Virus record (IMG/VR): IMGVR_UViG_2695420793_000011
Direction: 5' to 3' (one strand)
DNA from: a virus
Lineage: Duplodnaviria; Heunggongvirae; Uroviricota; Caudoviricetes
DNA: 12,246 nucleotides
Shown here: piece after piece, positions 1 through 6,477 of the stretch
How positions within the stretch are numbered: position 1 is the first letter of the stretch
How the letters are laid out: every line of letters begins with the position of its first letter
Notes under the pieces: generated by a model
What the model saw: only the letters and a program-made list of their open reading frames with translations
The model's database searches: none
What the model was told of the DNA's origin: nothing
Program-made: the position numbers and the translations under genes

Positions 1-220
1 AGAGACGCACGCGATAGCGTCCGTCCGGTACGATTTGCAGGTTGTCCAGTTCGGCAAGTTGTTGCTCTCCAAGCCAGACAGGTGGCACGTTATCGCCAGC
101 CAGTCGCCCGTCCTGTTCCTGCCACTGTTTCGCATGTGCCCACGCATCACTACCCGCAAAAATGATGACTTCCGTCATTTTGTCACGCGGCTGGTGTTTT
201 AAATTTGGCGCTTTTTTCAT
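1..220 (-). CDS. hypothetical protein, N-terminal 73 codons only; gene continues beyond window start
   Basis: Minus-strand ATG at 220-218 opens a frame reading MKKAPNLKHQPRDKMTEVIIFAGSDAWAHAKQWQEQDGRLAGDNVPPVWLGEQQLAELDNLQ... with E. coli-like codons and no stop before the window edge. The ATG overlaps the TGA stop of the upstream 99-aa ORF (ATGA), suggesting translational coupling. Not in the ORF track because it is open-ended. Function unknown. Confidence 0.45.
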   Translation of the reverse strand, partial: MKKAPNLKHQPRDKMTEVIIFAGSDAWAHAKQWQEQDGRLAGDNVPPVWLGEQQLAELDNLQIVPDGRYRVRL

Positions 221-516
221 TTCTGCTCTCTCCACGCGGCAATCATGTTTTTTAGTTCCTGTAGTTTTTTATCAACATCCATACATGACACATGGTTATT
301 TCTGGAAAGCGGGATTTCCCGCCTGAATCTGCTAATAAAGATCTCCACGTTCAGCGAACTAAGAAATGAATAGCCATCACGGATAAAATACACACGGTCA
401 AACATCAGTTCTTTTACCGTTACTCTGTTACCGTTCTTATCCAGATAAATAGCGCCGGGGATAATTTGGGGGTGTGCATAACCGCTGGCAGTCAAGCCAG
501 ATAAATACGTTCTCAT
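217..516 (-). CDS. hypothetical protein (99 aa), member of leftward small-gene operon
   Basis: ORF-track frame. It is in the same frame as the upstream 106-aa ORF, separated only by a TAA stop and two codons, and its stop overlaps the next start (ATGA). No family recognised. Confidence 0.5.
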   Translation of the reverse strand: MRTYLSGLTASGYAHPQIIPGAIYLDKNGNRVTVKELMFDRVYFIRDGYSFLSSLNVEIFISRFRREIPLSRNNHVSCMDVDKKLQELKNMIAAWREQK

Positions 517-522
517 GATTAT

Positions 523-843
523 TTATCCCCGATTTGAATCAGTATTCGCTTTCTTTATAGCATTTAATGCATCTGTGGCATTTTCAATGGTGCACCGTAA
601 CGAAATATCAAAATGTCCAAGCATTGCCAGTAACAAACCGATATTACCCATATCAATGCGCATGGCCTTTTCGTCATAGTCCTCATTTTCTGACGCATGC
701 CACATCAGGCTACCAATTGACGCAACAGCCATTGATATATTGTCAGTAGCCCCATCCGCAGCGGAATAAATCTTTTTAGCAATATCATGCTCACAGTTAA
801 AATGCGGATTAATCAGGTACTGGTAATTTGACATATCAGGCAT
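523..843 (-). CDS. hypothetical protein (106 aa), member of leftward small-gene operon
   Basis: ORF-track frame. Its ATG at 843-841 overlaps the stop of the upstream 67-aa frame (ATGCCTGA). No family recognised. Confidence 0.5.
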   Translation of the reverse strand: MPDMSNYQYLINPHFNCEHDIAKKIYSAADGATDNISMAVASIGSLMWHASENEDYDEKAMRIDMGNIGLLLAMLGHFDISLRCTIENATDALNAIKKANTDSNRG

Positions 844-1039
844 GGCACACCCCCTGACGAATACGGGCGGCGAATACCATCACGCAGCCAGCCGGGGATT
901 GCTGGCGTGCTTCCTGTTCGCTGGTGGCCACGATGTGAATCACGCGCGGTTGTGCGGTGCTCAGGGCGATAAAACGCCAGATGTATTTATTCAGGTTGTA
1001 CGAGTCCCGCCCTTGCGGGTGTATGGTATGATTTCTCAT
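836..1039 (-). CDS. hypothetical small protein (67 aa, MRNHTIHPQGRDSYNLNKYIWRF...), probable first gene of leftward operon
   Basis: This is the 3' portion of the 362-aa minus-strand track ORF. An internal ATG at 1039-1037 is preceded by GAGG about 8 nt upstream. The longer upstream extension runs through the AT-rich promoter region and antisense to better plus-strand genes. An alternative start at about 1132 is possible. Confidence 0.35.
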   Translation of the reverse strand: MRNHTIHPQGRDSYNLNKYIWRFIALSTAQPRVIHIVATSEQEARQQSPAGCVMVFAARIRQGVCHA

Positions 1040-1235
1040 AGCTGCCTCGATAATCTTGCTATCGTTGGTGGTTAGAAGCCCCGTTACTGCTCCTACAGTG
1101 CGGGGTTTCGTCGTTTCTGCACCTTGCATTAACAAGGTGTAAGTAACTTTATTTATAGGTGGCTTACATGTCAATGCTTTTATGTAAGACTTTTTATGTG
1201 TATATTGTCTTACACTTTCATTGAGAGGATTACAG
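1040..1235. promoter_or_regulatory. divergent promoter/operator region between the leftward small-gene operon and the rightward regulator-like genes
   Basis: AT-rich intergenic stretch with repeated TGTAAG(A/T)/CTTACA elements, including an inverted pair GTAAGAC...GTCTTAC around 1180-1215 and TTACATGTCAA at about 1164-1176. A short GC stem (CCCCG...CGGGG) at about 1080-1107 lies in the leftward leader. Confidence 0.45.
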
Positions 1236-1541
1236 ATGGCTACAGGTTCAAAAAACGCAAAATCACAATCACTGACAGCTCGGATCCCGCATGATGTTAT
1301 TGAAGGCATGGAATCCGTAAAACTGGACGGTGAAAGCAACGCCGGATTCATAGTAACCGCCATGCGCGGTGAAATCGCCCGCCGCCAGGCAGAAGGAAGC
1401 GGAGAAAACCTCCTGGTTTCTTCGCTCGATGCCCTAGCGCAGGTGGAAAAAATCGGAGTCAAAGCCGCCGAGGAGATCGGGCAACTCGTCACCGTCGCGC
1501 GTGAAGAACTCCAGCGACGCAAGGTCAAAGAGCAGGAATAG
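1236..1541 (+). CDS. small acidic protein, putative DNA-binding regulator of the island (family not confirmed)
   Basis: ATG at 1236 is preceded by GAGAGG at 1224-1229. Codon usage is E. coli-like and a strong intrinsic terminator follows the transcription unit. The N-terminal segment SLTARIPHDVIEGMESV is reminiscent of ribbon-helix-helix-type regulators, but this is an impression only. The track's longer start at 1221 lacks an SD. Confidence 0.5.
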   Translation: MATGSKNAKSQSLTARIPHDVIEGMESVKLDGESNAGFIVTAMRGEIARRQAEGSGENLLVSSLDALAQVEKIGVKAAEEIGQLVTVAREELQRRKVKEQE

Positions 1542-1598
1542 CCACTATCAGCGCCATAGTTTGAGGAACGCAGGCGCATTGCTTTACAGGACAGCACC

Positions 1599-1778
1599 AT
1601 GAGCGACACAGAATCAACCAAAACACCATCACCAACTCGTAAGAGACGACGCAAAAATATAGCGCATGAACATGAATCAGAAAGATTCGCACCTTGTTCG
1701 TTTGCTCTTGAGAAATTCCTTAAAGAGCACAGGAAAAAGCTCTCGTTGCAAACCTTGGAACGAACCAAATCTGACTGA
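1599..1778 (+). CDS. possible small basic protein (59 aa, MSDTESTKTPSPTRKRRRKNIAHEHESERF...)
   Basis: Found by manual translation; below the ORF-track size cutoff. It lies between the 1236-1541 gene and the plus-strand terminator. Weak SD and rare codons (AGA, CGA, AGG, ATA) make it uncertain. Confidence 0.25.
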   Translation: MSDTESTKTPSPTRKRRRKNIAHEHESERFAPCSFALEKFLKEHRKKLSLQTLERTKSD

Positions 1779-1845
1779 TCACATTGCCCACCAGCCGCAA
1801 ATGTGGCATTGTTGGCGATGCGTTCAAGTTTAGTGTGTATCCATT

Positions 1846-1877
1846 GGCGACCGCCCCCGGTCGCCTTTGTTTTATAT
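1846..1877 (+). terminator. intrinsic terminator for the rightward island transcription unit
   Basis: Perfect 8-bp GC-rich stem GGCGACCG / CGGTCGCC with CCCC loop (1846-1865), followed by TTTGTTTTATAT. Confidence 0.6.
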
Positions 1878-1892
1878 GTCATATGCTCCCCT

Positions 1893-2117
1893 TTACGCTG
1901 CCTTACCTGAATTAACGCGGTCACGGCTTTGCACCCAGTCCATAACTTCGGAAAGCAACCAGCCTACAGAACGCCCCCCAAGATTACGGCGAGACGGAAA
2001 GCCCCCTTTCTTCTCCAGTTCGTAGCGTGTAGTACGGCTGACGCCTGTTAACTTACGACATTCATCCTCACGAATTACGCGATCTGTTAGTGATTGAAAT
2101 TGTGTATTTTGATTCAT
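1893..2117 (-). CDS. alpA: AlpA-family phage/island transcriptional regulator (excisionase-like HTH)
   Basis: 74-aa translation with segment LTGVSRTTRYELEKKGGFPSRRNLGGRSVGWLLSEVMDWVQSR, matching the AlpA/Xis-type motif (GxSRsTiY...G.FP....lG.R.v.W...ev..W). Position downstream of a P4-type integrase is typical. Confidence 0.7.
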   Translation of the reverse strand: MNQNTQFQSLTDRVIREDECRKLTGVSRTTRYELEKKGGFPSRRNLGGRSVGWLLSEVMDWVQSRDRVNSGKAA

Positions 2118-2220
2118 AAAAACACCCTCGAACGTAACCGAACAAGGGCATCTTATTTACCATAGCAGTTGGTGCAATATTGGAAAAATAAACTTTATTC
2201 TAATTTATCGTTCTCCATGA

Positions 2221-3075
2221 TTAATTTTCATTAGATAAAATTTTTCTTATTTTTTCTAAAGAATCGCTGCGCATTATTTTTTCTAAGAAGGGTTTTACAG
2301 TCTGAACAATAGCAAAGGTGTCCTTTTCACCATCAGGATACAAAGATACGGCAAGCACCCCTAATGAAATTTTTCTATCTGTAGACAACTCCCAAGATAA
2401 TAAGTCAATTAATGGGATTATCTTATAATCAATAATTTTACGTCGTATGCTCTCCCAACTTCCTGCAATTGGTTTGTCTGGCTCAACAATTGAAAGTTCA
2501 CTACGCCATTTTGGTAATAGTTTTGTAAACGCTTCAATCAACTCATCATCTCTGTTATGTAGTAAGTCAACAGAAACAAGCATATTATCTAATGTATCAG
2601 AAAGGAGATTCACTGGTTCACGCATCACAGCCCAAAACATCCCATTATCTTCTGATATTAAACTTCCAACCATCTCATTATCTATGATGATTGGTTTATC
2701 CTTCCAATATCCTCTTTCCGCAGTCAGTTTATTAATCATTGATATATCAAACCTTGTTACAGGTTTAATTCCATCATCATAACTTAGCTCAATTAACTTC
2801 GGTTGCACTTTATGGTCATATTCTTTTTGTTTATCACAAAACCAATCGTCTTCTTTCAGCTCTCCAAATGGATCCCCGTAATTATTATGCAACGGGTATT
2901 CAGCACCAAACATAAATCCATATTCAGGCATCTCAGAATGTTTCATTGTTAAATCATCTTGTCGCCAATATAATTGGCGAAATAGATCTTTATCCGACAA
3001 GTTTTCTAGGCAATCATATTTGCCTAAATCAAATGACTTTGGTAAATCTTTTTTACTATTTACTTTTTTCGTCAT
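2221..3075 (-). CDS. hypothetical cytoplasmic protein (284 aa), AT-rich cargo gene between integrase and alpA; function unknown
   Basis: Long uninterrupted frame in visibly AT-rich DNA. Its ATG at 3075-3073 overlaps the integrase TGA stop at 3074-3072 (ATGA). No transmembrane segment or catalytic motif recognised by eye. Confidence 0.65.
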   Translation of the reverse strand: MTKKVNSKKDLPKSFDLGKYDCLENLSDKDLFRQLYWRQDDLTMKHSEMPEYGFMFGAEYPLHNNYGDPFGELKEDDWFCDKQKEYDHKVQPKLIELSYDDGIKPVTRFDISMINKLTAERGYWKDKPIIIDNEMVGSLISEDNGMFWAVMREPVNLLSDTLDNMLVSVDLLHNRDDELIEAFTKLLPKWRSELSIVEPDKPIAGSWESIRRKIIDYKIIPLIDLLSWELSTDRKISLGVLAVSLYPDGEKDTFAIVQTVKPFLEKIMRSDSLEKIRKILSNEN

Positions 3076-4292
3076 TGTATCCCTCTCAATATCACAATAT
3101 TTTCATTATATCCTGCAATCATATCAAGACGCTCAACCCATAGATTCAGTGCGTCCCGTTTCGCCTGCAAATAGCGTGAATGGTTATAGGTTTTTTGCTG
3201 ACCTGGCATCTGATGCGCTGTGATGTGCTCCACGATATGCGGATCGACACCTAAATCATTCAGCATAGTTGTAAACGTGTGTCGGAAATCATGCAGCGTC
3301 CAGTGTTCCTGCTTAAGCCGCTTATGCGCATTTCGTCCATATTGCGCCACCGTGGTATCTTTTTTCAGTTCGCCGAGTAATAACCCAGTGTGTGCGTTTT
3401 GCTCCACCAGCTTCTGAATGAACGGCAAAATACCATCAGGAATAGGTCGGAATATTGTTACCTTCGTTTTGCTGTGCTCTTTTGGCACTGTCCACAACAT
3501 TTCTTTCAGGTCCCATTCTTTGATCTCTGAAAGTCTGATCTCTGCCGTTCTGCACCCGAACACAATTAACAAGCGCATTAACGCACTGTAATAGGGAGCG
3601 AACACATCACCATCAATAGCGCGTAGAATTTCTTTTAGTTCGCTGTTGCTGTGCACTCTCTCGCGGATTTCTGCTCTCTTACCCACATCAGTAACGATCA
3701 AATCGTCCAGGGCGTTGCTAAACGCGTAGCGCCGCCTGCGGCAAAACTTTAGCGCCTGTTTGCATGTCTGCATGACATGGCCCGCTGCTACTGGTGCTTT
3801 TTTTCGTACGCGGTCAAAACATGCGATCCACTGCCTTGTATCACACTTATCAAGGGGAATTGCCCCAATATGGCAAATGATGTGCTTATCCATACGCTGC
3901 ACCAGCTTTATGTAATCTTTGCGGTTATCCTTCGCGTATTCCTCCAGCCAGTAGTTAATCGCTTCCTTCACCGTAACGGGTTTTAGTGCTTCCTGTACTG
4001 TGGCGCACAACTCATAACGGGGGTTTTTACCCTCAGCCAGCCATGCCCGGCACAGTGTGCGTTTTTCCCTTGCGGCTTTCAGCGACAATTCAGGGTAAGC
4101 CCCCAGCTTTAACCGCTCTGCGGCAACCTCACGGCCTCCCGTTCGGTACCGGAAATACCAGGTTAATTTGCCGCCCTTTGAGTGTTTAATCTCCAGCCCG
4201 CCCCCGTCGGAGTAAAAACGCTCTTTTTCTGCCTGGACAGCCGCCAATTTTTTTAACGTCGAATCGCTCAGTTTGTTTAGTGCTTTTCCCAC
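3072..4292 (-). CDS. int: P4-type tyrosine site-specific integrase
   Basis: 406 aa. The N-terminal arm-binding-type region (DGGGLEIKHSKGGKLTWYFRYRTGGREVAAERLKLGAYPELSLKAAREKR) resembles P4/CP4-57 integrases. The C-terminus has the HxxR box (HDFRHTF) and a candidate catalytic Tyr (KTYNHSRY). GTG start at 4292 with AGAGGA about 9 nt upstream. Confidence 0.85.
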   Translation of the reverse strand: MGKALNKLSDSTLKKLAAVQAEKERFYSDGGGLEIKHSKGGKLTWYFRYRTGGREVAAERLKLGAYPELSLKAAREKRTLCRAWLAEGKNPRYELCATVQEALKPVTVKEAINYWLEEYAKDNRKDYIKLVQRMDKHIICHIGAIPLDKCDTRQWIACFDRVRKKAPVAAGHVMQTCKQALKFCRRRRYAFSNALDDLIVTDVGKRAEIRERVHSNSELKEILRAIDGDVFAPYYSALMRLLIVFGCRTAEIRLSEIKEWDLKEMLWTVPKEHSKTKVTIFRPIPDGILPFIQKLVEQNAHTGLLLGELKKDTTVAQYGRNAHKRLKQEHWTLHDFRHTFTTMLNDLGVDPHIVEHITAHQMPGQQKTYNHSRYLQAKRDALNLWVERLDMIAGYNENIVILRGIQ

Positions 4293-4328
4293 TATCAGAT
4301 CCTCTTTTCAGTCCTCCAGCCTCAAAAA

Positions 4329-4352
4329 ACTGACCACACAACTGACCACACA
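4329..4352. repeat. tandem direct repeat (A)CTGACCACACA x2 immediately upstream of int
   Basis: Two 11-bp units CTGACCACACA at 4330-4340 and 4342-4352, 12-bp period. Followed at 4369-4386 by CGAACAAC x2 with 10-bp period, within an ACAA-rich tract. Confidence 0.5.
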
Positions 4353-4480
4353 TTTTGTTGAAGCTCTACGAACAACGACGAACAACAACAAACAAGAAAA
4401 CAGGATAATTTATTGTTTATCAAATACATACATAAACAACCACAAGCAACCCCGAACCACAAAAAACACTAAATGAGAAA

Positions 4481-4540
4481 ATACGGGTATTTCTCAGCCT
4501 TCACGCAGAAGGGCACCCCGAGTCGTTTGGTTGCGATGAT
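4481..4540 (-). ncRNA. 5' portion of the thiM TPP (thiamine pyrophosphate) riboswitch aptamer, truncated at the island junction
   Basis: The minus strand reads AACCAAACGACTCGGGGTGCCCTTCTGCGTGAAGGCTGAGAAATACCCGTAT, matching from memory the 5' half of the E. coli thiM leader including the conserved CUGAGA element. After ACCCGUAU the expected CACCUGAUCUGGAUAAUGCCAGCG is replaced by unrelated sequence running into int. Confidence 0.65.
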
Positions 4541-4621
4541 AAATCGCAGAGGAGGATGGTAATGTCCAGCGCACGCGTTGTAAACGAGGAAAAACGGCAG
4601 TTTTACAATCGCGTTAATAAA

Positions 4622-4894
4622 TTATTTGATATATGAATCCAGCACCTTCAGAACGACATCCAGATCTTCTTCACGTTTTAGCTCATCCCCCTGGTGAACG
4701 ATGTGTTCCGTCAGATGACCTTTAATCACTTCCCGTATCAGACCGTTTACCGCGCCACGGATAGCAGCAATCTGTTGTAAAACTGCAGCGCATTCGTGCG
4801 GCTCGTCGAGCATTTTCTTGAGCGCCACGACCTGGCCCTGAATCTTACTGGCACGCGCTTTCAGTTTCTGTTTATCACGGATTGTATGAGACAT
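4622..4894 (-). CDS. rcnR: RcnR, Ni/Co-responsive transcriptional repressor (CsoR/RcnR family)
   Basis: 90-aa translation recognised as RcnR ([52 protein letters not shown]...), divergent from rcnA. Confidence 0.9.
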
Positions 4895-4942
4895 GGCAAC
4901 ACCTGGTTAACAAGAATATGAAAAATCATAGCACTATTAATC

Positions 4943-4977
4943 TACTGGGGGGTAGTATCAGGTACTGGGGGGGAGTA
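4943..4977. promoter_or_regulatory. two RcnR operator sites (TACT-G6/7-N-AGTA) in the rcnR-rcnA intergenic region
   Basis: TACTGGGGGGTAGTA at 4943-4957 and TACTGGGGGGGAGTA at 4963-4977, matching the described RcnR G-tract operator architecture. Confidence 0.75.
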
Positions 4978-5014
4978 GAATCAGATTGCCGAATTAATAC
5001 TAAGAATTATTATC

Positions 5015-5839
5015 ATGACCGAATTTACAACTCTTCTTCAGCAAGGAAACGCCTGGTTCTTCATCCCCAGCGCCATCTTACTTGGTGCGCTTCATGGCCT
5101 GGAACCAGGGCACTCAAAAACGATGATGGCGGCGTTTATCATCGCCATCAAAGGCACCATTAAACAGGCGGTGATGCTCGGACTGGCAGCAACTATTTCG
5201 CATACCGCAGTGGTCTGGTTAATTGCCTTTGGCGGGATGGTGATCAGCAAGCGCTTTACTGCTCAATCAGCAGAACCGTGGCTCCAGCTGATTTCCGCAG
5301 TGATCATTATTGGCACCGCGTTCTGGATGTTCTGGCGTACCTGGCGCGGCGAACGCAACTGGCTGGAGAATATGCACGAGTATGATCATGAACATCATCA
5401 CCACGATCACGAAGATCACCACGACCATGGACATCATCACCATCACGAACATGGCGAGTATCAGGATGCCCATGCACGAGCCCATGCCAATGATATTAAA
5501 CGACGCTTTGATGGTAGAGAGGTCACCAACTGGCAAATTTTGTTATTTGGCTTAACAGGTGGTCTTATCCCCTGTCCGGCAGCAATTACCGTGCTGTTGA
5601 TTTGCATTCAGTTGAAAGCCCTGACACTGGGCGCAACACTGGTCGTCAGTTTCAGCATTGGCCTGGCGTTAACGCTTGTCACCGTAGGCGTTGGCGCAGC
5701 AATCAGCGTTCAGCAGGTCGCAAAACGCTGGAGCGGATTTAACACTCTCGCTAAACGCGCCCCCTATTTTTCCAGTCTGTTGATTGGCTTAGTCGGTGTG
5801 TATATGGGCGTACATGGCTTCATGGGCATAATGCGATAA
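5015..5839 (+). CDS. rcnA: RcnA nickel/cobalt efflux transporter with His-rich cytoplasmic loop
   Basis: 274-aa membrane protein recognised as RcnA. It has the HGLEPGHSKT motif and a His/Asp/Glu-rich loop (EYDHEHHHHDHEDHHDHGHHHHHEHGEY) encoded at about 5390-5460. Confidence 0.9.
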   Translation: MTEFTTLLQQGNAWFFIPSAILLGALHGLEPGHSKTMMAAFIIAIKGTIKQAVMLGLAATISHTAVVWLIAFGGMVISKRFTAQSAEPWLQLISAVIIIGTAFWMFWRTWRGERNWLENMHEYDHEHHHHDHEDHHDHGHHHHHEHGEYQDAHARAHANDIKRRFDGREVTNWQILLFGLTGGLIPCPAAITVLLICIQLKALTLGATLVVSFSIGLALTLVTVGVGAAISVQQVAKRWSGFNTLAKRAPYFSSLLIGLVGVYMGVHGFMGIMR

Positions 5840-6057
5840 CTCAATCCTTTAGGCTTGCATGTTATCTTCAGCCCAGGATGATTCTTAAATCAGCTATTTC
5901 CGCTGACTCTCTGCTCGCTAAGGATGCTTTTAGGGCATCCTTTCATTTACACTTTTTACGAAATCATGGGATCACTAACAAAATATCGCTTGTCAGTTAT
6001 ATTGTATGGCAGGAAAGATATGCGACTGATATTACAGATCCCCAAAGTGGAGAGTTT

Positions 6058-6396
6058 ATGACCATTAAAAATAAGATGTTGCTGGGTGCGCTTTTGCTGG
6101 TTACCAGTGCCGCCTGGGCCGCACCAGCCACCGCGGGTTCGACCAATACCTCGGGAATTTCTAAGTATGAGTTAAGCAGTTTCATTGCTGACTTTAAGCA
6201 TTTCAAACCAGGCGATACCGTCCCAGAGATGTACCGCACCGATGAGTACAACATTAAGCAGTGGCAGTTACGTAACCTGCCCGCGCCTGATGCCGGGACG
6301 CACTGGACCTATATGGGTGGCGCGTACGTGTTGATCAGCGACACCGACGGTAAAATCATTAAAGCCTACGACGGTGAGATTTTTTATCATCGCTAA
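6058..6396 (+). CDS. rcnB: RcnB (YohN) periplasmic protein of the Ni/Co efflux system
   Basis: 112 aa starting MTIKNKMLLGALLLVTSAAWA (signal peptide), ATG at 6058 with GGAGAG SD. The track ORF from 5878 is an upstream in-frame extension without SD. Confidence 0.85.
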   Translation: MTIKNKMLLGALLLVTSAAWAAPATAGSTNTSGISKYELSSFIADFKHFKPGDTVPEMYRTDEYNIKQWQLRNLPAPDAGTHWTYMGGAYVLISDTDGKIIKAYDGEIFYHR

Positions 6397-6425
6397 AAAA
6401 AGCCCCCTCATCATGAGGGGGAAAT
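6397..6425 (-). terminator. intrinsic terminator between convergent rcnB and yehA, with the U-tract on the yehA side
   Basis: Stem CCCCCTCA / TGAGGGGG at 6403-6421. On the minus-strand transcript the hairpin is followed by the T-run complementary to the A-run at 6395-6401. Confidence 0.55.
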
Positions 6426-6477
6426 GCAGACACCTTGTTATTTTTTATTATTAGCCACTTGCTCGTCTTGCTTGTTA

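Follow-up and report, generated by a model that had tools for sequence, protein, structure and literature searches.

A phage satellite integrated within the thiM TPP riboswitch aptamer of Escherichia coli

The viral record analyzed here, a stretch of 12,246 nucleotides (hereafter the window), holds the left attachment junction (attL) of the phage satellite EcCI224, a Gram-negative PICI whose P4-type integrase recombined at a 14-bp core within the aptamer of the thiM TPP riboswitch. We assign this reading a probability of roughly 0.85. Integration of EcCI224 splits the aptamer and parts thiMD from its native promoter and TPP sensor. The element is not a new system, as its coordinates and 14-bp core were previously published: Table S1 of Fillol-Salom et al. 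2018 (ISME J, PMC6092414) lists EcCI224 in E. coli Ecol_224 at CP018948.1:1961620-1972242 (10.6 kb), with att core AGAAATACCCGTAT and att gene 'frmR-thiM', and these coordinates coincide with the core positions found here. The present analysis adds three points: the site is a riboswitch, integration breaks the sensor instead of rebuilding it, and a second integrase family occupies the same aptamer.

On the minus strand, rcnR is followed in the window by a promoter-like site for thiM, then by 50 nt from the 5′ end of the TPP aptamer, and finally by island DNA. rcnR (4622..4894, minus strand), a 90-aa ORF annotated in both Ecol_224 and K-12, forms the chromosomal flank upstream of the thiM leader. 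The promoter-like site, TTTACA-17-TACCAT (4556..4584, minus strand), was detected by consensus scan just upstream of the annotated riboswitch and is the top PWM match (10.2) within the K-12 rcnR-thiM spacer. The 5′ half-aptamer, CCAAACGACUCGGGGUGCCCUUCUGCGUGAAGGCUGAGAAAUACCCGUAU, occupies window 4530..4481 (minus strand), is truncated after ...ACCCGUAU and was recognized both by a partial TPP match and by identity to the 5′ 50 nt of the K-12 riboswitch (L002 1871-1967; L002 coordinates refer to the K-12 locus and L001 coordinates to the Ecol_224 locus). It holds the 5′ strands of P1 and P2, the P3 hairpin, the CUGAGA junction and the 3′ strand of P2. Because these 50 nt are the K-12 leader itself, the resemblance is not due to chance, and identity to the characterized thiM leader shows that the segment derives from a bona fide TPP riboswitch.

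Homology to K-12-type genomes ends exactly after ...CUGAGAAAUACCCGUAU (window 4481|4480), beyond which lie island DNA and the P4-type integrase gene. The AT-rich left arm of the island, from the core to int (4293..4480, minus strand), has no relation to K-12 from 4480 downward and is kept in Salmonella relatives. A three-way alignment of the K-12 attB, the window attL and the far-junction attR placed the break directly after ...ACCCGTAT and left AGAAATACCCGTAT as the sole segment common to all three; this attL core (14 bp, 4481..4494, minus strand) recurs as a perfect direct repeat at the far island end. When window 4900..4300 was used as a megablast query against 5,426 complete E. coli genomes (5,415 matched), K-12-type genomes aligned to query positions 1-420 only, i.e., up to window 4481, and 72 of the 5,426 genomes aligned straight across the attL junction. 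The first-pass annotation had proposed, from the window alone, an island inserted in the thiM TPP aptamer at 4470-4545. This proposal was borne out: the interval brackets the junction, the break is exact at 4481 and the K-12 leader diverges after ACCCGUAU.

Covariance model searches gave a consistent picture. Across the whole window, no Rfam family scored at or above its gathering threshold. With relaxed settings, a scan of 4300-4700 returned a TPP match of 20.6 bits (E 0.089) that covers the 5′ half of the model to ACCCGUA, the remainder being spanned by an insertion. With the same model (RF00059), the intact K-12 site at L002 1871-1967 scores 71.2 bits; the RefSeq annotation has a TPP riboswitch there, immediately before thiM. 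Against the gathering score of 54.3 bits, both the half in the window (20.6) and the half at attR (33.3) fall short of a full aptamer, and the search with RF00059 suggested in the first-pass annotation likewise found no full-length TPP aptamer here. Matches to snoR12, SBRMV1, Ms_IGR-8, ST7-OT4_3 and MIR1508 were below threshold and were dismissed as chance.

Window positions 1-11839 are 100% identical to E. coli Ecol_224 (CP018948), in which the insertion spans rcnR to thiM and the island measures 10,623 bp counting both cores. A repeat search located the perfect 14-nt direct repeat AGAAATACCCGTAT at L001 20407-20420 (window 4494..4481) and L001 31016-31029, the two copies being 10,609 bp apart, start to start. 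Beyond the far junction, ...ttagtaAGAAATACCCGTATcacctgatctgg..., come the remaining 3′ half of the aptamer, then the expression platform and the start codon (ATG) of thiM, so that these parts and thiMD are now 10.6 kb off at attR. Extension to the other junction, which had also been suggested, thus recovered the direct repeat, thiM at the other end and a true island boundary, and the claim that the thiM promoter and half-aptamer are separated from thiMD holds in Ecol_224, where the distance is 10.6 kb.

It had further been suggested that either thiMD has lost its native regulation or the far island end rebuilds the leader. The first part stands, in that thiMD has lost its native promoter and aptamer; the second does not, as the far end repeats the 14-bp core only. 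A functional rebuilding, by which TPP control of thiMD would be kept as in the replacement pieces of tRNA-targeting islands, finds some support in the bases leading up to the PICI attR junction, 15/17 of which match the riboswitch (GUAAGAAAUACCCGUAU vs CUGAGAAAUACCCGUAU), and in a second, unrelated island family that does rebuild its target (see below). However, the 33.3 bits of the attR region (threshold 54.3) come almost entirely from the 3′ half, with the P1, P2 and P3 pairs flagged as non-canonical and their 5′ strands absent, and in the island sequence before the attR core GUAAGA replaces the conserved CUGAGA. Of the aptamer, the right end of the island contributes just the 14-bp core, and both a G-rich P2 strand and a P3 hairpin are missing there; the last ~280 bp of the island are conserved across three variants and contain nothing aptamer-like. 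In addition, RefSeq annotates a riboswitch at empty sites and at 0/60 occupied attR junctions among the matches listed. The low score and the missing helices rule out a rebuilt aptamer at the far end of EcCI224, and we regard retention of TPP control through a rebuilt leader as extremely improbable.

Rebuilding was instead observed in the second family. In the ExPEC genome CM172609, one of those lacking the intact locus, the leader is kept to ...GGATAATGCCAGCGTAG, where an integrase gene other than that of the PICI follows, and a second copy of AATGCCAGCGTAG stands at the far junction beside thiM. This second core is set 27 nt farther downstream than the PICI core, within the same 97-nt aptamer, and the corresponding attL was found in 188 genomes. 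The island of this family found in a strain labelled E. coli C is ~11 kb long, its cargo includes a SIR2-family gene and a HigB-family toxin gene, and it carries a 77-bp aptamer copy, with both junctions above the TPP threshold (60.5 and 73.2 bits). Since this copy gives an above-threshold riboswitch next to thiM, it is the second family that realizes the idea of a far end rebuilding the leader. By BLASTP, the integrase of this family shows no similarity to that of the PICI; it lacks an arm-binding domain and matches Pfam in the catalytic domain only. Two unrelated integrase families have converged on the DNA of the thiM TPP aptamer, and this DNA may be a recurrent attachment target with a role like that of tRNA genes. 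A further variant of the locus was seen in O157:H7, where a 2.3-kb insert replaces the native thiM promoter region; the right 590 bp of this insert are 83% identical to the right end of the E. coli C-type island.

The position occupied by EcCI224 is a true, recurrent, site-specific attachment site. The attR junction was detected in 75 of the 5,426 complete E. coli genomes (93.5-100% identity) and attL in 72; thus, ~75 genomes (~1.4%) have satellites at the thiM-aptamer site. The intact 261-bp K-12 locus is present in 4,728 genomes and absent in 698 (~13%). Carriers of attR came from humans, poultry, pigs, wildlife and fresh water and include ST131, ST648, ETEC strains and SMS-3-5. At the same site, SMS-3-5 has an identical integrase protein and a different packaging module, annotated as capsid, protease, portal, head-tail connector, HNH, TerS and TerL, and LH50-c has a different integrase protein and a third module, whose capsid gene differs and which includes a head-decoration gene. 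Viewed through the window, in which nothing beyond a single junction is visible, the junction might have come from a single rearrangement or deletion that became fixed in one clone. This reading is already refuted, and its residual probability is negligible: a perfect 14-bp direct repeat stands at both ends, 4,728 genomes retain the intact locus, and the 72-75 genomes with the same junctions come from varied hosts and strain types and differ in cargo. Moreover, Salmonella relatives join at the same junction nucleotide, and the site was published as a PICI att site.

These relatives were found through the integrase. For Salmonella-labelled integrases in the protein database that are 69-74% identical to that of EcCI224, the leader again ends ...CTGAGAAATACCCGTAT|TTTCTAAT, at the same nucleotide, and the contig of one further integrase (70% identical, without a species label) shows the same leader end. 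Integrases 66-67% identical sit elsewhere, at ordinary intergenic sites by cspD or a lysR-family gene, contexts similar to two sites in Table S1 (PMC6092414), cspD-clpS and lysR-smrA. Because these integrases occupy other contexts, the clade switches targets readily, with non-tRNA sites as its norm. Among species-representative genomes, neither an integrase peptide scan nor a search with the exact attL junction string yielded a relative. The att entries in Table S1 (PMC6092414) are genes or gene pairs, such as ycfD-phoQ, tqsA, cspD-clpS and yicC-dinD, and none is labelled as a tRNA gene. The first-pass annotation had called the attachment site unusual; this is apt insofar as the site lies in a riboswitch aptamer, but non-tRNA sites are normal for this satellite family (Table S1, PMC6092414).

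The int gene (3072..4292, minus strand; WP_000513574.1) encodes a 406-aa protein and is co-oriented with thiM. Its domain architecture is that of a P4-type (arm-domain) tyrosine integrase, as had been proposed: Arm-DNA-bind_3 (PF13356, 63.6 bits) covers residues 8-94 and Phage_integrase (PF00589, 62 bits) residues 216-374, with an additional match to PF22022 below its cut-off (18.9 bits). The catalytic-type motifs CRTAEIR (Arg), HDFRHT (His-x-x-Arg-His) and C-terminal YNHSRY (Tyr) can be seen by eye in the translation. The attachment core lies in the thiM leader and not at a tRNA/tmRNA 3′ end, which is the usual but not the defining target of P4-type integrases. Core AGAAATACCCGTAT encodes the J3/2 junction and the 3′ strand of P2 in the thiM TPP aptamer, and the integrase would have recombined this 14-bp core of the island with the identical chromosomal sequence.

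Candidate binding sites for the integrase were found on both sides of the core. A 70-nt arm repeat (4326..4395, minus strand), a candidate arm-type integrase-binding region, lies 86 bp inside attL, and its second copy lies 64-133 bp before the attR core (L001 20506-20575 and 30883-30952; 94% identity). Within it, a motif scan revealed a doubled motif, TGTGTGGTCA(G), with its two copies 12 bp apart (4331..4352, minus strand; 4352..4343 and 4340..4331). Four perfect copies of TGTGTGGTCA occur in 40.6 kb, all in the two arms of the island and two per 70-nt repeat. In the Salmonella relatives whose integrases are 69-70% identical, both motif copies read TGTGAGGTCAG. The doubled motifs in the 70-nt repeats flanking the core are taken to be putative arm-type sites for the integrase. 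In the reconstructed attP core, AAGAAATACCCGTATTTTCT, an imperfect palindrome is visible, which would fit inverted core-type sites about a central overlap. Because the crossover falls inside the 14-bp identity, excision by Int and AlpA would restore an intact riboswitch.

Gene content and layout also agree with a PICI. Directly downstream of int is a DUF6387 gene (2221..3075, minus strand; Pfam PF19924, 108.7 bits), followed by alpA (1893..2117, minus strand; Pfam Phage_AlpA, 58.8 bits), which encodes an AlpA-family regulator; AlpA controls induction of Gram-negative PICIs (PMC6092414; bioRxiv 10.1101/2022.09.08.507074). The sole island gene on the opposite strand in the window is a YlcI/YnfO-family gene (1236..1541, plus strand), known from RefSeq annotation of identical sequence; the longer mechanical ORF at this place had no Pfam match. 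An Icd-like cell-division inhibitor gene (836..1039, minus strand; RefSeq annotation of identical sequence), a hypothetical gene (523..843, minus strand; ORF list and annotation) and a DUF4222 gene (217..516, minus strand; Pfam PF13973, 60.2 bits) follow, and positions 1..220 (minus strand) hold the start of a D5-type primase/helicase gene that continues past the window (L001 24681-26498; D5_N, DUF5906, Pox_D5). Past the window, a dense cluster of GGTGAACAGT iterons lies just downstream of the primase (L001 26497-26734). Farther on are two 80-nt repeats resembling published PICI cos sequences, a ClpP-protease/major-capsid fusion, a DUF1441 gene and a small conserved ORF.

At 10,623 bp, the island falls within the ~8-15 kb of PICIs and has their layout, with int at the left, then alpA, and mostly rightward genes: int, DUF6387, alpA, icd-like, DUF4222, primase and capsid genes are on one strand, and two small genes are opposite. 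As in PICIs, it also has its own primase/replication gene (D5_N, DUF5906, Pox_D5), with the iterons as the putative adjacent origin. The annotation of the EcCI224 island includes neither tail nor lysis genes, and the 14-bp core was seen with satellites only.

The consequences for thiMD depend on what transcribes it at attR. A consensus scan detected no sigma-70-like site in the last 1.1 kb before attR. By PWM, no site in the final 600 nt scored above 5.9, compared with 10.2 for the native thiM promoter; this lies below the 5th percentile (7.0; median 9.2) of the best scores from shuffled versions. Both scans would miss weak or non-sigma-70 promoters. An outward promoter at the right end was considered and rejected on these results; a candidate TATGCT hexamer noticed by eye has a spacer of 13 nt and is not conserved. 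Transcription of thiMD may thus rest on read-through from the rightward genes of the island, so that expression would probably be low and TPP-blind; we consider the chances of this to be about even.

Predicted folding bears on translation. With the aptamer helices enforced, the wild-type Shine-Dalgarno (SD) had an unpaired probability of 0.0. The attR leaders were predicted to form an alternative helix that ties up the anti-SD, and the mean unpaired probability of the SD was 0.62-0.91 for 4/6 of the 5′ ends tried (0.28 and 0.55 for the other two). This result is suggestive and depends on the assumed 5′ end. If the predicted fold is right, the truncated leader would default to an 'ON' state in which the Shine-Dalgarno is free and translation is permitted. 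With the aptamer split, we infer that TPP is no longer able to regulate thiMD.

A stronger effect would be that integration silences thiMD and that carriers need external thiamine, the island being tolerated only because gut E. coli import thiamine. The native promoter is 10.6 kb distant, and no promoter-like site was seen in the last 600-1100 nt. A hairpin of 11 pairs (8 G-C) with a weak T tract, present in 2/3 variants (L001 30620-30645), would also favor silencing, as would the description of PICI genes as helper-phage-induced, which implies that read-through may be small without a helper. On the other hand, both thiM and thiD are annotated as intact in each of the three carriers inspected. 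All three strains share one ThiD protein (WP_000822274.1) with K-12, and their ThiM proteins have three different accessions, one of them common to K-12. Carriers belong to many lineages and come from diverse habitats, fresh water and wildlife among them, and the attR leader is predicted to permit translation. On balance, silencing seems to us rather less probable than not. thiD is required for de novo thiamine synthesis. Because thiD is needed and yet the island persists in many lineages, thiMD may be expressed better than its sequence suggests.

At the other end of the island, the thiM promoter-like site and the 5′ half-aptamer remain beside rcnR and now point into int. The site is co-oriented with int, which lies ~260 nt downstream, and a scan called no terminator-like site between the two; therefore, thiM-promoter transcripts should run into int. 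A terminator created by the junction was considered and rejected, as the GAGAAA/UUUCUC hairpin over the core looked weak by eye and the scan called no terminator before int. From these features, one could picture a PICI wired into host physiology, whereby the thiM promoter feeds int, thiMD is TPP-blind and tied to satellite transcription, and excision restores control; we consider this unlikely. A regulatory form of coupling, in which the thiM promoter drives int and reversible excision toggles TPP control of thiMD in a manner similar to 'active lysogeny', would draw on the same orientation and spacing and on the exact restoration of the riboswitch expected upon excision. It also has a published precedent for cis coupling in helper-embedded PICIs, which are co-oriented with the interrupted gene (PMC10111431). 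However, the reconstructed excised attP junction had no match in IMG/VR or in metagenome contigs (the attL string is present in 7 IMG/VR contigs), and no sign of programmed excision was found. In addition, use of ordinary intergenic sites (cspD, lysR-family) by integrases 66-67% identical suggests that the target follows sequence and not function. Such toggling therefore appears quite improbable.

PMC6092414 gives the integration site only as 'frmR-thiM'; the location of the core in the aptamer and the effect on thiMD are absent there, and the word 'thiM' does not occur in its main text. Similarly, 'riboswitch' is absent from the cf-PICI preprint, and 'EcCI224' appeared in no main text searched, the site being found only in the supplementary Table S1 of Fillol-Salom et al. 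A literature search limited to open-access text yielded no paper describing a riboswitch as an integration site or thiM as an att site. Because the 'frmR-thiM' site is the middle of a textbook riboswitch, thiMD of every carrier is cut from its promoter and TPP sensor. Carriers (~1.4% of complete E. coli genomes and some Salmonella) thus represent a natural loss-of-regulation allele whose thiamine phenotypes are directly testable. The presence of two families at one aptamer offers a side-by-side contrast between breaking the target and rebuilding it. The 698 of 5,426 genomes without a K-12-type rcnR-thiM spacer (~13%, including those with the O157:H7 insert) bear on the use of the K-12 riboswitch as a model for the species. 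If the reading of the aptamer as a target is true, the DNA of the thiM TPP aptamer parallels tRNA genes as an island target.

Compared with known systems, the element is the same as EcCI224 among the Gram-negative PICIs (PMC6092414): genome, coordinates, 10.6-kb size and 14-bp core agree, and EcCI224 shares the typical layout of int leftmost and pointing inward, alpA, an icd-like gene, primase with iterons, cos-like repeats and capsid-related genes. The cf-PICIs, with EcCIEDL933 as prototype (bioRxiv 10.1101/2022.09.08.507074), share att sites with classical PICIs (same preprint), and the SMS-3-5 element at the thiM site has the full cf-PICI set. EcCI224 differs from them in that it has only the ClpP-protease/capsid fusion and the DUF1441 gene and thus falls short of a full head and packaging set.

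The integrase of satellite phage P4 and those of islands targeting tRNA and tmRNA genes show the same architecture of Arm-DNA-bind_3 and tyrosine recombinase domains as int of EcCI224. In both cases, arm motifs flank a short core, and the target DNA encodes a conserved structured RNA. In contrast, the target of EcCI224 is not a tRNA gene but a cis-regulatory aptamer in a 5′ leader, and it is broken while the element is integrated because the element brings no replacement for the displaced part. The second (E. coli C-type) island family resembles the PICI in that its att site is also in the thiM TPP aptamer, with int beside attL and co-oriented with thiM; it differs in its unrelated integrase, in its core, AATGCCAGCGTAG, 27 nt downstream, and in that one variant carries the 77-bp aptamer copy.

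Helper-embedded PICIs (Tommasini, Mageeney and Williams 2023, PMC10111431) likewise lie inside, and are co-oriented with, an interrupted transcription unit, and, like EcCI224, they have a DNA motif that occurs twice, at a set spacing, around the core of attP. The former interrupt late genes of the helper prophage, whereas EcCI224 interrupts a host riboswitch leader, with a putative effect in cis. Finally, SPbeta in spsM and the sigK intervening elements also break a host function that precise excision would restore, as predicted for EcCI224. Those elements break a coding frame, whereas EcCI224 breaks a regulatory RNA and its linkage to the promoter.

The thiM TPP riboswitch aptamer harbors a second attachment core, AATGCCAGCGTAG, located 27 nt downstream of the core used by the PICI EcCI224. 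This second core is used by a tyrosine integrase unrelated to the PICI integrase and was occupied in 188 of the 5,426 complete E. coli genomes. Its junctions were located in E. coli ExPEC NZ_CM172609.1 (thiM-locus regions L020, 3560-3760, and L022, 44150-44680) and in a strain labelled E. coli C, NZ_CP029371.1 (L023, 15890-16150 and 26980-27320). The E. coli C-type island is approximately 11 kb in size, and its contents include genes for a SIR2-family protein and a HigB-family toxin. Because this island brings a 77-bp copy of the aptamer, two TPP riboswitch matches (60.5 and 73.2 bits), both above the Rfam gathering score of 54.3 bits, were detected in the strain that carries it.

Other elements were observed at the 5′ edge of the riboswitch. 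In O157:H7 ECP19-2498 (L005, 1730-4140), rcnR is separated from the 5′ edge of the riboswitch by a 2.3-kb insert, which replaces the native thiM promoter region and whose genes encode an outer-membrane protein, a hypothetical protein and an HTH-like protein. The right 590 bp of this insert and the right-hand terminus of the E. coli C-type island are 83% identical, and on the basis of this similarity the insert looks like a remnant of that island family. In addition, in E. coli PSS-07 (L021, 1-3630), another element, with IS4 and a short integrase gene on the opposite strand, adjoins the 5′ edge of the riboswitch, which is still annotated there; homology to K-12 begins at GACTCGG.

The exact attL junction string of EcCI224 was present in seven IMG/VR viral contigs (L013-L019), and thus the satellite and its chromosomal flank get binned together as viral. 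The 100% match of the window to Ecol_224 ends at position 11839, and no alignment was obtained for the last ~400 bp (11840-12246), towards yehD/yehE, so that the window may derive from a sister strain or from a variable segment.

Within the window, an ORF of 362 aa with a GTG start was called mechanically on the minus strand (836-1924). This predicted long form overlaps the annotated Icd-like gene, the end of alpA and, on the other strand, the YlcI-like gene; RefSeq annotation is limited to the final 67 codons of the ORF. On the plus strand (1846-1865), 3′ of the YlcI-like gene, GGCGACCGCCCCCGGTCGCC forms a strong hairpin of terminator-like type, with TTTGTTTTAT after it; the 3′ end of alpA lies slightly beyond this site.

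Beyond the window, the Ecol_224 region with the whole EcCI224 (L001) contains a dense cluster of GGTGAACAGT iterons in direct and inverted orientation (26497-26734), directly downstream of the primase gene. This cluster is probably the replication origin of the satellite. Two 80-nt direct repeats, 91% identical (L001, 26888-26967 and 29424-29503), lie on either side of the protease/capsid gene. These repeats are similar to the cos sequences of PICIs given in the supplement of Fillol-Salom et al. (2018; PMC6092414), which start with TTTATGGGTCC and include GGGGCGG.
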